Shown piece after piece: positions 621-13,709 of a DNA stretch of 13,709 nt (positions are counted from its first letter, which is position 1; each line of letters starts with the position of its first letter). Origin of the DNA: a virus. The position numbers and the translations under genes are program-made. The notes beneath the pieces were generated by a model that searched no databases, was not told the DNA's origin, and saw only the letters and a program-made list of their open reading frames with translations. The stretch lies in UHGV virus genome UHGV-0265340; one strand, given 5' to 3'.

Positions 621-1313
621 TCAGAATTCAAATTGTCTTGCCCGCAGGCTTTTCAGCATTGGCGTGGCCCGCTGGATAACGGAACTTGACATGTCGAGAC
701 GTGTTACCTCCCTTAGTAGCGCGTCTCTGTTCTTCGTCACCATGTAGATAGTCTCAAACGCAATGTCATACAGCTTGTTCGTGTATGAGGAGTTCAGCTC
801 TTTCATTATGGGGTACAGCTGCTTGCTAAGGTCCTGGGCTTTTTCCATCCAGAGTTGCATGTAACAAAGGAGGATGATTTCCTCGGCTGTGAATTGTGGC
901 TGAATCTGCGGCTGCTGTTCGGTTGGTGCTGTTTTTCCCTGGCTGAAATAGCAGTCTTCCAGTTTTTCGAACACTTCCCACGCCTGATCGGTTTCTAGCA
1001 TTTTGGCGTGACGGGCTGCGCCTCGTTCTGTCCAGAGGATGAGGGAGCGGGCTTTCGGGGAAATTTGTAACCCTCTTAAAGATGGTTGCAAATTTTGTGA
1101 GTAGTTTAAAGCTACCCGCAAATTTTTCAGGGCATCGCCAGCCACTTTGAAAAAATGCTTTCCTTCAATAAAGCGCTCAGCATTTCTGGCGTAGTTATTT
1201 TGAATGTTCTTAACTTCAGCACCGTACAACTGCGCCAAAAGTTCGGTGGTAATAACAGGAATCTGGTTATGGGTGATCGGGGAGAGAGTTTCAACAGAGA
1301 TTTGAGTTGTCAT
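621..1313 (-). CDS. Roi/antirepressor-like phage DNA-binding protein (Bro-N/ORF6N-type N-terminus)
   Basis: 230-aa ORF with ATG at 1313 and SD-like GAGGG upstream; N-terminal segment (NYARNAERFIEGKHFFKV) resembles ORF6N/antirepressor N-domains; sits just upstream of ninB where lambdoid phages carry roi/ant-like genes. Family call is from recollection only. Confidence 0.7.
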   Translation of the reverse strand: MTTQISVETLSPITHNQIPVITTELLAQLYGAEVKNIQNNYARNAERFIEGKHFFKVAGDALKNLRVALNYSQNLQPSLRGLQISPKARSLILWTERGAARHAKMLETDQAWEVFEKLEDCYFSQGKTAPTEQQPQIQPQFTAEEIILLCYMQLWMEKAQDLSKQLYPIMKELNSSYTNKLYDIAFETIYMVTKNRDALLREVTRLDMSSSVIQRATPMLKSLRARQFEF

Positions 1314-6311: not shown

Positions 6312-6472
6312 CAGACGGTCCCGGTATCTCCCGGGTTAACCCAATCGGCTTCAGGCTGCTGCGGTTGGTGTGACTGCACATTGGTGTGACTGCACATCTT
6401 CACAGACGGTCCCGGTATCTCCGGGTTAACCCAATCGGCTTCAGGCTGCTGCGGTTGGTGTTGTTGCTGGCG
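6312..6472. repeat. Two direct copies of a ~59-bp repeat (91-bp period) plus an embedded 16-bp tandem duplication
   Basis: Copies at 6312-6370 and 6403-6460 (CAGACGGTCCCGGTATCTC(C)CGGGTTAACCCAATCGGCTTCAGGCTGCTGCGGTTGGTG); TTGGTGTGACTGCACA duplicated in tandem at 6365-6396; located between the cII-like gene and the replication gene. Confidence 0.85.
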
Positions 6473-8450: not shown

Positions 8451-8723
8451 ATGTCCAGAAAGACAGAATTTAAAGGAACCGCAACTTCCCGCCGCAGAGC
8501 ACACCGGGCTGAGCTTCAGAGTCTGGAGGCATCAAGCGCTGATAAACTGCACCGCCCCACGCCTTCACGGGTGTACTTACAGTGCAAGCGCAAAGCCGCA
8601 ATGCGAGCTGAAGTAGTCACGATAACGACATTAACCAGAAAATATGAAGGCTCCACTTGTCTTCCAAACACTGCACTTTACGCAGCTGGCTATCGCAAAT
8701 CCGGAACAATAACAGCGAGGTGA
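8451..8723 (+). CDS. N: N-like transcription antiterminator (P22 gp24 / lambda N family)
   Basis: 90-aa ORF from ATG 8451 (SD GGAGAGA 8439-8445); arginine-rich motif TSRRRAHRAELQ resembling the lambda N ARM (QTRRRERRAEKQ); C-terminus LPNTALYAAGYRKSGTITAR parallels P22 gp24 as recalled; matching nut sites on both operons. Confidence 0.8.
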   Translation: MSRKTEFKGTATSRRRAHRAELQSLEASSADKLHRPTPSRVYLQCKRKAAMRAEVVTITTLTRKYEGSTCLPNTALYAAGYRKSGTITAR

Positions 8724-8726
8724 TTG

Positions 8727-9440
8727 ATGACCACACCTTCAGTTTTGCCGCAAAAATTATGGCGTCCGCTTGCAGAGATTAAAAACTTCGTTGAAAAAAT
8801 GCCTGATGGTGTTCGCCTTACGGAGGTTACAAAAAAAGTTAAGACGTTTGCCGAACTGTCAGGAAAAGAGAGAAACCAGCTCATAGATTTTATCGATAAA
8901 CGGGAAAGCATCATTGTATTTAAGGTCAGAAAAGAAGGTTCTGGTAACGGAGTAACCTTTTTCCGCCACAAAAAATATGGATATCCCAAACGGGAAGGAA
9001 ACGTCACAATCATTAAGGACCTTCAATCAAAATTATGTACCAGATGCGGGCAGACAAAATCAGTCAATGATTTTTATTCAGATGCCAGCAAGCGTGACGG
9101 GAGAGCCATTTATTGCAAGAAGTGCGAATCTGCAATGAAACGCTCACGCAGAGAATGCAACAAATTAATTCTGCAACAACAGGAACCTGAAATGAATAAC
9201 CTCAAAGCAGTTTCACCTTCACCAGAAATACTCAGAAAACAGGCTGAAGAATTGCTGAAAGCCGCCGAAATTGCGGAGAAAAAACGCCAGGAAGATGATG
9301 CATTCAACAAAAAACTTGCGCCCTTAAAACTTGAAATTCTTCAGGCCGCCGGAAAAATGCAGCTTAAACTGGACGAATTCATCGACTGTATGGATGAAAT
9401 GAATAAAGCAGTTCAGAAGCTTAAAGAGCTGACCGCCTGA
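8727..9440 (+). CDS. Hypothetical protein with CxxC...CxxC zinc ribbon and coiled-coil-like C-terminus
   Basis: 237-aa ORF from ATG 8727 (SD GAGG 8717-8720, 6-nt spacing; starts 4 bp after the N stop); CTRCG...CKKCE motif; K/E-rich helical C-terminus; AT-rich codon usage typical of phage cargo; no family recognised. Confidence 0.75.
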   Translation: MTTPSVLPQKLWRPLAEIKNFVEKMPDGVRLTEVTKKVKTFAELSGKERNQLIDFIDKRESIIVFKVRKEGSGNGVTFFRHKKYGYPKREGNVTIIKDLQSKLCTRCGQTKSVNDFYSDASKRDGRAIYCKKCESAMKRSRRECNKLILQQQEPEMNNLKAVSPSPEILRKQAEELLKAAEIAEKKRQEDDAFNKKLAPLKLEILQAAGKMQLKLDEFIDCMDEMNKAVQKLKELTA

Positions 9441-9471
9441 TATTAATAAATTGCAACTACCGGAGTTAACT

Positions 9472-9831
9472 ATGAACGAAACAGAACTGAAGCACATTAT
9501 CGCCCTGCTTCTGGAAGATGCCGGACAGGTTTATCGACTTAGCCCAAATTCCGCAACGCTGACACGCATCCAGATGGCAGAAAAAGCACTGAAACAGGAT
9601 AATGAAAACAGCGCATCCGAAGTTGATGCTAATGGTGAAAATGAAGTAATAGAAATAAACAGCAATATCAGCGACAGTTGCATCGCTTACAGCCACCAAA
9701 TAATTCGTGTAAGTGCAAGAATAATGGAAGTGATGGCAAGTGAGCTTGAAAAGAACAACATCAAGCCCACTGATTGTTGTTTAAGAACCGTAATGAACGT
9801 TATTTATTACTCGATGTTCCGAAGCCGCTAA
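9472..9831 (+). CDS. Hypothetical protein (119 aa)
   Basis: ATG 9472 with SD GGAG (9462-9465); acidic, AT-rich; no family recognised; 3' end overlaps the convergent ORF 9800-10009. Confidence 0.65.
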   Translation: MNETELKHIIALLLEDAGQVYRLSPNSATLTRIQMAEKALKQDNENSASEVDANGENEVIEINSNISDSCIAYSHQIIRVSARIMEVMASELEKNNIKPTDCCLRTVMNVIYYSMFRSR

Positions 9832-10009
9832 CAGCGTCGAGTTTTTCATTAAAAAATGATTCAAATGCATCGTAAAATACGGCAATAGCACCGCCCTTAT
9901 CTACCGCGGCAGGAACTGCCTTTTGAGGTATATCTTTCTCCCTGAATTGTGTGTTGTAGGTATCGACAGCCAGCCGCATCAGAAACATCACTTTTTCTTC
10001 TTGTGTCAT
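9800..10009 (-). CDS. Hypothetical small protein (69 aa), convergent with the upstream gene
   Basis: ATG at 10009 preceded on the minus strand by a strong SD (AAGGAGAG, about 7-nt spacing) and a structured GC-rich leader; overlaps the 3' end of 9472-9831 by 32 bp. Confidence 0.45.
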   Translation of the reverse strand: MTQEEKVMFLMRLAVDTYNTQFREKDIPQKAVPAAVDKGGAIAVFYDAFESFFNEKLDAVSGFGTSSNK

Positions 10010-10248
10010 AAATTCACTCTCCTTACGGGGTTTGTAGTTGAGGAGTTCTCCACGGGTGAGGTGGAGATCGTGCGCCGGACACGGGTAAGTTCCGGCACTC
10101 TCAGTTTACTGAACAGACATTACCCTGAAAGCCAGGGTACAACACGAAAGTGCACGGCGAAGACTCTTTCCCATTGAAGGCTTGTCGTTAGATTTCTTCG
10201 ACCGTGCGCTTCCGGTTGTGAATAACAACATTGCTGTGTGTAGCCCTT

Positions 10249-10290
10249 GGCGGACATCGGTTTGCCGATTGCTGATGTCCGCCCTTTTTA
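10249..10290 (+). terminator. Strong intrinsic terminator with no adjacent upstream CDS
   Basis: Stem GGCGGACATC (10249-10258) / GATGTCCGCC (10274-10283) with an inner ATCGG/CCGAT pairing, followed by CTTTTT (10284-10289); nearest upstream plus-strand CDS ends at 9831. Confidence 0.6.
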
Positions 10291-10465
10291 AAGTGAATTT
10301 TGTGATGCGGTGAATGCGGCTATGCGCACGCGGAACAGTTAAACCGACAGGATGTCACGGAAAGTCATCGTCCCCTGACCCGGCGTTAGTTGTTAACTGG
10401 TTAACGTCACCTGGAGGCACCAGGCACCGCATCAACAAAGTTCATTTGTGAAAATGGAGATAATT

Positions 10466-10687
10466 ATGATTGCTCATCACTTCGGAACTGATGAAATACC
10501 ACGTCAGTGCGTGACGCCTGGCGATTATGTTCTTCATGAAGGTCGGACATATATCGCTTCAGCAAACAATATTGAAAAGAGAAAACTCTATATTCGTAAC
10601 TTCACAACAAAAACATGCATTACCGACTGCATGATTAAAGTTTTCATCGGGCGCGATGGCTTACCCGTAAAAGCAGCGTCGTTGTGA
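10466..10687 (+). CDS. Hypothetical small protein (73 aa)
   Basis: ATG 10466 with SD GGAGA (10456-10460, 5-nt spacing); in-frame alternative ATG 10454 and GTG 10448; Cys-containing, AT-rich; no family recognised. Confidence 0.5.
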
Positions 10688-10770
10688 CGAGTAATAAAAT
10701 ACACCTTCCATATCTGTAACAGACAAGCCGAAATAAAACCGCATTAATTATCAATCACGGAAAAATCAAA

Positions 10771-11157
10771 ATGAAAGAGCTTGCGCAAAATGAAATATTT
10801 TCCGAAACCAGTCCTGATGCAATAAATGAACTCAAAGAAATTGCAGAACGCATCAGTAAAATATGCAAAGAATACAAAATCGACTTTGTATTTTCTTTTT
10901 CAGTGCTTACAGAAGTTGGAAATAACGAATATAAGGACAGCCGTTTTGTTTTATGTGGGTTAAATGGCAAAACACCAAGCCCATATATTCATGCTGCACG
11001 TGAAGTTGTCAGAAGCAACATTGGAGTACAACAAATCCATACACTTGCACAGGCTCTTGAGTTTGCAAGAGAAAATTCTGAGTGCGACTGCCCTGAATGC
11101 CAGCACGAAAAGGGAAAAACAACTCACAAAACAGCAAACCAGGCAACCTTCCACTGA
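10771..11157 (+). CDS. Hypothetical protein (128 aa) with C-terminal Cys cluster
   Basis: ATG 10771; helical acidic N-terminus; CDCPECQHEKGK near the C-terminus; very AT-rich; no family recognised. Confidence 0.65.
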   Translation: MKELAQNEIFSETSPDAINELKEIAERISKICKEYKIDFVFSFSVLTEVGNNEYKDSRFVLCGLNGKTPSPYIHAAREVVRSNIGVQQIHTLAQALEFARENSECDCPECQHEKGKTTHKTANQATFH

Positions 11158-11264
11158 AATAAAAATCCGGCAGCGCAGGCTACCGGATTTCTCCCTGCGT
11201 CACCGTATTCGGAGAAATCAGACAAAGGGCCGCTAATTCTAATCCAGCCAGAGGTTTAAATACA

Positions 11265-13337
11265 ATGAGCGCTGATAAACAGACTTTTGCACTACACTGC
11301 GAAGCAAAAAACGATAAAGTCAGAAAACGCCTTGGCATCAAAGGCGGTTTTTTCTGGACCGAGGCCAGAAAACTTTCTGTCGCAGTTTCCCGCTGCATTG
11401 CAGCCATGGACGATGCAGGCTACGACGAGGATGATTTCAAAAAACCCGTTCGCGTAAATTTCCCCGTCGTGAATGACCTTCCACCGGAAGGCGTGTTTGA
11501 TACTGAATTCTGCAACCGCTATGAAAAAGGCGGTAACGATGGCATCACCATGATGGCTATCCCCTTCGATGACAACATCAACGGTGAAGATGCCACAACT
11601 GCTGGCGATGACAACGATAACCTGGACGGAACTATTCCGGATGATGTGGAGAAAAGCGAATCCCCGGACAGCGACGATGACTGTTCTGAGTGTGAAATTC
11701 CCGTCGCCACTCTGAGCCTTACTCATCGCTTCCTTCACCTCTTCTTATTCAGCAAAGATGAAGATGGAAAATACCGGCATCATGCCACACCAGAACAACG
11801 CAATAACGTGATCCGTATGGAGATGGACACAGAGGACAGTTACCTTCAGAGCCTGCTTACTGCTGTGCGCGCCGCGCATCATGAACTGGATAAACTGACG
11901 AACTATCACCTTAGTCGCCTGGCTGAATCTGTAGGGAAAGCATTCCCCCACTCTGCAAATCATCGCATCAGCCCGGCTGAATTCGACAAGTTCATTTCCA
12001 CCTGGATGAAAACTGACTACCTTGATCAGGGCCTGCTGACAAAAGAATGGCAGAACGGAAATTATGTTTCAGGCATTACCCGTACGCCTTCCGGTGCTAA
12101 CGCTGGCGGCGGAAATATTACCGATCGTGGTGAAGGATTCAAACATGATAAGACATCACTCGCACGAGATGTAGCCACCGGCGTTCTGGCCCGTTCAATG
12201 GATGTGGATATTTATAACCTGCACCCAGCACACGCAAAACGCGTTGAAGAAATCGTGTCAGAGAATAAGCCGCCCTTTTCTGTTTTTCGCGACAAATTTA
12301 TCGCCATGCCCGGTGGGCTGGATTATTCCCGCGCCATTGTGGTGGCTTCCGTGAAAGAAGCACCAATCGGCATTGAGGCCATCCCGGCACGCGTGACTGA
12401 ATATCTCAACAAAGTGTTGACCGAAACCGATCACGCTAACCCGGATCCGGAAATCGTGGAAATTGCCTGCGGTCGCTCATCAGCACCGATGCCGCAGCGC
12501 GGAACAGCAGAAGGAAAACATGGCGATGAAGAAAAGCAACAAGCATCGGACACAATGGCTAATGAACAGGCAGCGCCTGAATCAGTGGAAGAAATTCCAG
12601 TTAAACATAATGAGGACACGCAATCACTGGAAAATGTCTCATCTGTAGAAACGAAATACCAGGAACTGAGGGAGGAACTCAATAAAGCCAGGGAAAACAT
12701 CCCCCCAAAAAATCCAGTCGATGCCGACAAATTACTGGCTGCCTCGCGTGGAGAATTCGTTGAAGGCATCAGTAACCCTGCTGATCCGAAGTGGGTGAAG
12801 GGGATCCAGACTCGCGACACTGAGGACCAGAATCAGTCCAAAGTGGAACAAATTGCCCCAGAAGCGGGACAAAACAGCCCGGATACGCAACAAAACGGGC
12901 CAGAAGAGCAACAGCCAGGGCCAGTAGCGCAACCGGAGCTGGAAAAAAACTGCCGCGTCTGTGGTCAGACTGGCGGGGGTAACTGCCCTGACTGTAGTGC
13001 GGTAATGGGCGATAGCACTTACACAGAAACTTTTGGAGAAAATGACGCCGCTGATGGAGAAGACTCAGCACAAACTGAGGAGAAGATCATTCAGGAAAAC
13101 TCTGTTGATGCCGCTCAGGAGGGCGAAACCGTTGTTCAGAACGAGCCAGGCAGTGATACGTCCGGCGATGACGCCAATTCTGAGCCAGTAACTCTCGACT
13201 GGAAAAGACAGCTCGTGATTGCCGCCGTCTATGGTTTGTGCGCCAACCCCGCATGTATAGCCACAGCGCCAGCAATCCCTGATATCGCCATCATGATTGC
13301 CAACAGGCTTGAAAATTTCGGAGGTGATAAATCATGA
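11265..13337 (+). CDS. Large acidic protein resembling the non-catalytic N-terminal region of RecE (exonuclease VIII) family prophage proteins; nuclease domain apparently absent
   Basis: 690-aa ORF from ATG 11265 (GAGG 11251-11254); D/E-rich low-complexity stretches; CRVCGQ...CPDC motif; segments such as NFPVVNDLP and [16 protein letters not shown]...[16 protein letters not shown]...[10 protein letters not shown]...[12 protein letters not shown] match my recollection of the Rac RecE N-terminal region (unverified); stop overlaps the gam ATG (ATGA 13334-13337). Confidence 0.8.
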
Positions 13338-13630
13338 ATGCCTGGCTTATCCCCGATCGCATTGAAGAGCAGTCATGGGCACGACACTACCAGCAAATTG
13401 CCCGTGAAGAAACTGAAGCTGAGCTGGCAGACGACCTGGAAAAAGGTCTGCCCCAACACCTGTTTGAATCGCTATGCATCGATAATCTGCAACGTCACGG
13501 GGCCAGCAAAAAAGCTATTTCCCGTGCATTTGATGACGATGTCGATTTTCAGGAACGCATGGCAGAACACATCCGCTACATGGCTGAAACCATCGCCCGT
13601 CACCAAATTAATATTGATTCAGAGGTATAA
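13334..13630 (+). CDS. gam: Gam host-nuclease (RecBCD) inhibitor, lambda type
   Basis: 98-aa ORF almost colinear and near-identical to the short (GamS) form of lambda Gam as recalled ([44 protein letters not shown]...[23 protein letters not shown]). Confidence 0.95.
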
Positions 13631-13635
13631 AACGG

Positions 13636-13709
13636 ATGAGTACAGCACTCGCAACGCTGGCAGGGAAGCTGGCTGAACGTGTCGGCATGGATTCTGTCGA
13701 CCCACAGGA
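13636..13709 (+). CDS. bet: Bet (Red-beta) single-strand annealing protein, 5' fragment (runs off the window)
   Basis: ATG 13636 six bp after the gam stop; first 24 codons MSTALATLAGKLAERVGMDSVDPQ match the lambda Bet N-terminus as recalled; ORF is open to the window end. Confidence 0.9.
   Translation, partial: MSTALATLAGKLAERVGMDSVDPQ

Follow-up and report, generated by a model that had tools for sequence, protein, structure and literature searches.

The plus strand of the window (the whole 13,709-nucleotide stretch of DNA analysed here) very probably carries a gene for a KilS-family prophage small RNA (sRNA) at about 10201-10289, in the pL operon and 175 nt upstream of kil, judging from sequence comparison. 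The first-pass annotation had seen in this region a candidate prophage sRNA in a position like that of DicF in the Qin prophage. That part of the proposal stands, as there is an sRNA gene in the pL operon and in the slot of DicF, but the RNA is not undescribed, being a homologue of KilS (b4833, PMC8175672).

In Escherichia coli K-12, kilS (b4833) lies in the Rac prophage; Hfq RIL-seq data led to the prediction of its RNA, which a northern blot then confirmed (Bar, Argaman, Altuvia and Margalit 2021, PMC8175672). The transcription start of K-12 KilS has been mapped to 1418502 and an internal RNase E site to 1418471; otherwise its characterisation is thin, with three RIL-seq interactions and one proposed target, yncL (PMC8175672). 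A covariance model (R1) was built from 18 Rac-type KilS sequences only, with window-type sequences excluded. It matches the window at 10201-10289 with 67.3 bits (E 1.4e-15), and scores 21-23 bits on DicF loci and 20 bits on rprA. Global identity between the window sRNA, of about 80-93 nt, and K-12 KilS is 77%, and the two copies hardly differ in the core GUGCGC...UGCUGUGUGUAG and in the 3' stem arm. A five-way alignment with Rac KilS and the Qin DicF loci places positions from about 10130 to 10289 as homologous to the KilS locus. The genes are on the same strand, at the same distance of 175-176 nt from kil or kilR, and are followed by the same leader: kilS ends 176 nt upstream of kilR in the K-12 record, and in the window the last T of the run is 10289 and kil starts with an ATG at 10466. 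The predicted 93-nt fold of the window RNA (z -3.5) has the classic layout of an Hfq sRNA, in which some 30 open nt separate a 5' hairpin from the terminator.

A covariance-model search of Rfam, which had been suggested as a check, gave no family at gathering thresholds on the segment, nor anywhere in 9700-10800; a permissive search returned only sub-threshold matches to DicF, RprA, and STnc100, which served as leads and not as identifications. KilS-type copies, counted where at least 80% of the 93 nt were covered, occur in 1765 of 5426 complete E. coli genomes (about a third), and 63 of these 1765 genomes have at least 95% identity to the window variant. One copy, at 504259-504351 of NZ_CP027394.1 (E. 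coli O104:H4 FDAARGOS_349), is 100% identical to window positions 10198-10290. None of the 25 matches listed has an annotated feature under the KilS-type copy, and among the records examined only that of K-12 MG1655 annotates kilS. When an exact 18-mer anchor was searched in genome contigs, matches outside Escherichia and Shigella were mostly due to chance, so the exact anchor is confined to those genera, and cross-genus covariation was not obtained.

The window comes from an E. coli prophage of lambdoid, Stx-like type and corresponds to its immunity and early-left region; pL transcription runs along the plus strand. Positions 8658-13709 are 98-99% identical to phage PhiR5_2, and 10010-10465 has a 100% match in the chromosome of a pig E. 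coli. Rac KilS sits in a cryptic remnant; the element here looks like an intact phage of lambdoid, Stx-like type and has 99% identity to PhiR5_2. Along the plus strand come cI, N, genes at 8724-9440 and 9472-9831, a 634-bp gap, kil, an unknown gene, and a gene for a RecE-like exonuclease, which in relatives is followed on the same strand by gam-bet-exo-int. The kil gene (10466-10687, plus strand) encodes a 73-aa FtsZ/cell-division inhibitor that matches phrog_294 ('Kil protein for bacterial septation inhibition', E 8e-36) and is annotated as kil in PhiR5_2 and by PGAP. The gene at 8724-9440 encodes a 238-aa pL-operon protein (phrog_2539), whose residues ~100-190 match endonuclease VII, HNH, and Lar-like zinc-ribbon PHROGs. 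On the minus strand, a 69-aa gene (9800-10009) has a full-length match to phrog_2605 (E 3e-44) and a PGAP call (WP_000189936.1), with AAGGAG 8 nt ahead of its ATG, and it shares 32 nt with the 3' end of the 119-aa gene on the plus strand (9472-9831). This minus-strand gene holds the place of sieB in Rac, both being on the opposite strand upstream of the sRNA. Between these genes G+C content is higher than in the surroundings, as had been remarked (0.48-0.52 over 9900-10500 against 0.33-0.45 in the flanks). Upstream of the terminator, the closest plus-strand CDS stops at 9831, which agrees with the distance of about 420 bp to the terminator given earlier.

Two further features were noted elsewhere in the prophage. 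On the minus strand at 1366-1564 there are Rfam gathering-level matches to C4 antisense RNA (1366-1449, 66.7 bits) and isrK (1475-1551, 74.7 bits), together with c4-a1b1 targets (1512-1564). They lie directly upstream of a 230-aa ORF (621-1313, minus strand) that has sequence in common with an ORF6N-domain gene, and by its sequence the whole looks like a P1/P7-type RNA-controlled antirepressor module. Secondary BLAST matches revealed two direct repeats of about 60 nt, 98% identical, in the replication-gene region (6312-6371 and 6403-6461), which are probably origin iterons.

The 3' end of the sRNA gene is a Rho-independent terminator on the plus strand (10249-10289) with a 13-bp stem and a 9-nt loop. 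Its arms, GGCGGACAUCGGU and GCUGAUGUCCGCC, span 10249-10283 and are followed by C and UUUUU at 10284-10289, the U tail consisting of five U only. The predicted fold has -23.9 kcal/mol (z -6.4), compared with -9.2 +/- 2.3 for shuffled sequences, none of which was as stable (0/200), in line with the strong plus-strand terminator described from the letters alone. The minus-strand version has no U tract, so the terminator would act on the plus strand only. It escaped a consensus terminator scan only because of its 9-nt loop, the limit of that scan being 8 nt. Among 22 KilS-type sequences, the variants of the terminator stem stay paired (ACAUC/GAUGU versus AUAUC/GAUAU), so the compensatory base changes that a comparative alignment was to look for are present here. 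The terminator of Rac KilS has a bulged U and a loop of about 19 nt, whereas the window copy has a perfect stem, its extra A pairing with the U that is bulged in Rac.

Upstream of the open stretch, positions 10139-10220 form a long imperfect hairpin of about 22 pairs whose 3' arm is the 5' end of the sRNA. With -34.1 kcal/mol (z -5.2), it is much stronger than the upstream hairpins named in the first-pass annotation, which overlooked it. The hairpin is kept in 49 distinct homologues despite wholly different apical regions; across these, 91.5% of the alignment cells are paired, and sliding the 3' partners leaves no more than 43.5% paired. Both-sided changes occur in three pairs, essentially in one lineage split (Rac type versus the rest), and the frequent U-G variants fit an RNA from the plus strand only.

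The Qin prophage offers a precedent for how such a hairpin may be used. There, a 190-nt DicF species depends on RNase III and a 53-nt form on RNase E, and no internal promoter was found (PMC10448788). Counting 190 nt back from the DicF 3' end leads to the 3' arm of the homologous hairpin (locus L003, 1746-1751, GACCGUGCG/CUUCC/GG), a placement made from the 190-nt size only, the exact cut being colour-marked in the supplement (PMC10448788). The sequence in Fig. S1 of that study starts in the hairpin loop, which is consistent with a cut inside the homologous hairpin (PMC10448788). Given that the Qin hairpin would hold the start of the 190-nt DicF, we infer that the hairpin at 10139-10220 is the RNase III entry site. 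By this analogy the 5' end cut by RNase III would fall at about 10209-10214, and a putative RNase E cut at 10229/10230 would give a short form of about 60 nt. A third candidate 5' end, at about 10198, comes from alignment to the K-12 KilS start. In Rac copies the hairpin loop has an extended -10 sequence, TGtTAAATT, in agreement with the mapped KilS start, whereas the window has CGtTAGATT, as does Qin. Lacking the TGn extended -10, the window copy is probably made mainly by processing of the operon (pL) transcript. A consensus scan predicted no sigma-70 promoter upstream of the window sRNA, which makes its abundance in a lysogen uncertain, although the same simple scan also misses the K-12 KilS promoter.

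A sensitive search found 10012-10195 to be about 78% identical to PPompW-, Evi-, and Qin-type phages; in the homologous stretch of these phages, the only coding gene to overlap is the end of a minus-strand 'hypothetical protein' gene. Positions 10030-10222 are homologous to the ydfC-dicF spacer of Qin, with about 80% identity, up to ...CCGGUUGUG. After this point the window continues into the KilS seed, and Qin continues for about 125 nt more and then into DicF. The distance from the RNase III hairpin to the terminator is accordingly about 125 nt shorter in the window than in Qin DicF, while the upstream spacer, including that hairpin, is homologous in both. The DicF 5' seed UUUCUGGUGACG is absent from the window, and in the locus alignment the KilS seed is in its place; the window sRNA has a different seed and no ftsZ/xylR/pykA pairing region. 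In contrast to Rac KilS, the 5' part of the window copy and all sequence upstream of it are of the Qin type. On these alignments, the window copy is a mosaic in which Qin-type sequence upstream is joined to a seed of the KilS type.

KilS, DicF, and the window sRNA all end 175-177 nt upstream of the genes that follow them (kilR, dicB, and kil, respectively), the distance from the DicF end to dicB being 175 nt in the K-12 record of Qin. A near-invariant flank (UUUUUAAAGUGAAUUUUGUGAUG...) and the leader of about 175 nt that runs to the start codon are common to the three loci. DicF (Rfam RF00039, Qin dicBF operon) shares with the window sRNA its slot, a similar terminator, and an identical downstream flank. 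DicF also precedes a cell-division inhibitor gene and is made by termination and processing of the operon transcript, to which we liken the window sRNA. Using the invariant flank as an anchor in viral contigs (loci L006-L125), we surveyed the slot equivalent to 10200-10289 and found at least four seed types on the same terminator-leader scaffold: DicF, KilS, a CCAUGUUGAUU type, and a CCAUGUGUAGU type. Downstream of the leader comes dicB, kil, or a gene for an Ash/Rha-family regulator. Seed and gene are mostly linked as DicF-dicB and KilS-kil, with exceptions in which DicF precedes kil or KilS precedes dicB. In these viral contigs the slot upstream of kil/dicB is a hot spot of seed swapping.

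The leader itself (10290-10465, plus strand), from the sRNA terminator to the kil start codon, is conserved and has a consensus fold, in which three hairpins, together with a hypervariable 32-58-nt insert, lie inside a closing helix (GUGAUGCGGUG/CACCGCAUCAC). It was found in 4616 of 5426 E. coli genomes, and in different phages it precedes three unrelated genes (kil, dicB, and the Ash/Rha regulator). Changes in its helices are one-sided changes to G-U, plus two compensatory pairs in Rac. Rfam STnc100 matches 10286-10480 with 31 bits (gathering score 47). The match to this prophage-associated RNA (RF02076) covers the full-length model and includes the same closing helix and CACCUGGAGGCACCAGG hairpin; STnc100 is, however, a stand-alone sRNA, and the stretch in the window is the 5' leader of kil. 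The Pas sRNAs were considered and set aside, as PasD/STnc100 of a 2026 preprint sit in the late region near Q and not at the kil locus.

The single-stranded seed region (10221-10248, plus strand) resembles a host sRNA. Positions 10230-10243 (ATTGCTGTGTGTAG; the conserved KilS seed is AUUGCUGUGUGUAG) are identical to nt 60-73 of RprA, and Rac KilS is identical to RprA at 24 of 26 positions. The local alignment scores of RprA with the window and Rac copies were reached by none of 3000 dinucleotide shuffles. In the 22 KilS-type sequences the seed is near-invariant, while the terminator stems and loops vary. A processed form, RprA60-105, is known (PMC3465796, citing Argaman 2001). The seed identity begins exactly where RprA60-105 begins, and the K-12 KilS RNase E site at 1418471 aligns there. 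At the cut point all three RNAs have RN/AUU (GA/AUU, AC/AUU, and AC/AUU, with the slash marking the cut), which, at the start of the seed, we take to be the RNase E consensus. The window and Rac KilS have the same seed and the same AC/AUU.

The likeness to RprA is confined to this part of the RNA. RprA (Rfam RF00034) is a core-genome, RcsB-dependent sRNA whose 5' stem-loops and rpoS- and hdeD-pairing regions are missing here, and its terminator, promoter, and genomic context differ from those of the window sRNA. Membership of the RprA family was rejected: 10182-10293 scores 29.7 bits against a gathering score of 70, and only nt 47-79 align. Rac KilS (locus L004, 1906-2003, minus strand) and rprA (locus L126, 173-278) encode RNAs of similar size. 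In the literature searched we found no paper naming KilS together with RprA. Northern probe 2 for KilS in Bar et al. 2021 is complementary to the stretch shared with RprA, and their other probe is specific. With 24 of 26 positions in common there, probes to the seed and short RIL-seq reads may fail to tell the two RNAs apart.

The shared seed lends itself to target prediction. Site I in the csgD leader pairs with nt 60-97 of RprA, the GCUG:CAGC pairing (-90..-87) having been proven by compensatory mutations, and the same region of RprA contributes to pairing with ydaM/dgcM (PMC3465796). The 14 nt that the window has in common with RprA include this GCUG. RNAduplex structures with long internal loops were uninformative, and we replaced them by a search for contiguous complementary runs. 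The window seed has 15 contiguous predicted pairs with csgD -97..-83, CAGC included (-23.9 kcal/mol), compared with 16 for the Rac copy and 15 for RprA. For dgcM, runs of 9-11 pairs are predicted at +3, and for yncL, the RIL-seq target, runs of 9-10 pairs at about -37. RNAduplex energies for pairing to yncL, rpoS, and the kil leader lay within the range of shuffles. Three candidate partners were rejected: pairing of the sRNA with its own kil leader is not above shuffles; with ftsZ, a DicF target, there is only a weak, G-U-rich match of 10 bp near the ftsZ start; and for the rpoS leader the RprA core AACGAAUU is interrupted (AACAACAUU), leaving no contiguous run of more than 9 bp at the rpoS site. 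We tentatively suggest, as a possibility that we hold with less than even confidence, that KilS-type sRNAs mimic processed RprA and repress csgD and dgcM/ydaM, and that the slot ahead of kil/dicB is a seed-swap cassette.

Taken together, the RNA may be made and act as follows. Transcription of the pL operon, or local transcription, would stop at the terminator at 10249-10289 and give the 3' end of the sRNA. RNase III would cut the long hairpin at 10139-10220 to give a 5' end, as for the 190-nt DicF precursor in Qin, and RNase E may cut at AAC/AUU (10229/10230), leaving a form of about 60 nt with the seed at its 5' end. With Hfq, the seed would then pair with host mRNAs in trans. In cis, the terminator would bar unprotected transcription from the toxic kil gene, and N-modified polymerase would read through it in lytic growth. 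Trans action, processing, and RprA mimicry are what we infer for the window sRNA from homology and complementarity.

These cis and trans roles are compatible, but the segment might have the cis role only, as a tL-type terminator or attenuator that shields kil unless N antitermination is active, with the short RNA an inert by-product. The terminator does lie inside the pL operon directly ahead of kil, the scaffold precedes dicB, kil, or the Ash/Rha gene regardless of seed type, and the sRNA has no predicted promoter of its own. We nevertheless consider this unlikely: the 30 nt upstream of the stem, which a mere terminator would not need, are near-invariant in the KilS type, Hfq-bound chimeras of K-12 KilS with mRNAs have been recovered (PMC8175672), and DicF, the Qin occupant of this slot, has been proven to act in trans (PMC5069750, PMC10448788). 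That the window RNA could itself be a DicF family member, targeting ftsZ/manX/xylR, is suggested by the common slot, terminator flank, and downstream leader, and by a sub-threshold match to Rfam DicF (29.5 bits, E 3.7e-4). This is highly improbable, as the score is below the gathering score of 48, the match covers the terminator hairpin only, and neither the DicF seed nor more than the weak ftsZ match is present.

The other readings leave the sRNA aside. The first-pass annotation had alternatively proposed a structured leader of the 69-aa minus-strand gene, and the segment could also hold that gene's promoter region. The gene (9800-10009) looks real, with its phrog_2605 match, strong Shine-Dalgarno (SD) sequence, and PGAP call, and its promoter must fall somewhere in 10010-10200. 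Next to it is the Qin-type spacer (10030-10138, plus strand, about 80% identity to Qin, PPompW, and Evi), with three small hairpins at 10047-10067, 10074-10096, and 10121-10139. The first two, TCTCCAC/GTGGAGA and GCCGGA/TCCGGC, are present as described earlier, but the plus-strand fold of 10010-10130 is not more stable than those of shuffled sequences (z -1.08); the minus-strand fold is marginally stable (z -2.42). Across 43 homologues there is no real covariation in the three hairpins, only sequence conservation: the second is 99% paired but invariant, and the first and third have only 66-71% of cells paired. The leader proposal fails for the terminator and sRNA, which lie 190-280 nt from the gene start and on the opposite strand. 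The terminator has its U tract on the plus strand only, and the U-G wobble variants in the conserved helices would be A-C mismatches on the minus strand. The same spacer also occurs in K-12 Qin, where there is no annotated minus-strand gene. A minus-strand leader or promoter region is thus a very unlikely account of the segment and could hold at most for 10010-10130, not for 10139-10289; that shorter stretch may contain the promoter or 5' UTR of the 69-aa gene. To a small protein encoded in the segment we give next to no credence. As had been noted, there is no convincing plus-strand ORF: 9832-10465 is gene-free, and the ORFs found mechanically in 10010-10465 (10182-10313 and 10314-10451) reach only 43-45 aa, have no ribosome-binding site (no SD at proper spacing), and in one case cross the terminator. 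Their frames are not kept in homologues, where stop codons and indels (32-58 nt, in lengths not divisible by three) interrupt them, and no such gene is annotated in the records examined. The sRNA suggestion had been left dependent on this point; the homologues have no conserved coding frame across the region, the leader insert again being 32-58 nt and not a multiple of three.

Reading the segment as a KilS-family sRNA gene places it in a validated, Hfq-associated sRNA family; about one in three complete E. coli genomes has a member, which among the records examined only that of K-12 MG1655 annotates. The mosaic structure ties KilS to the RNase III/RNase E processing pathway of DicF and offers a testable model for the biogenesis of this copy. 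The identity of the seed with that of RprA gives the first mechanistically grounded target predictions for KilS, namely csgD site Ib and dgcM, and it raises the idea that phages copy the seeds of host sRNAs. If the proposed mimicry is true, KilS would act on the curli/biofilm pathway upon prophage induction or through leaky expression from pL or its own promoter. The kil division-arrest module would then be coupled to a shut-down of the matrix, independent of the Rcs signal that controls RprA, and lambdoid phages would swap seeds while keeping the scaffold of processing hairpin, terminator, and leader unchanged.
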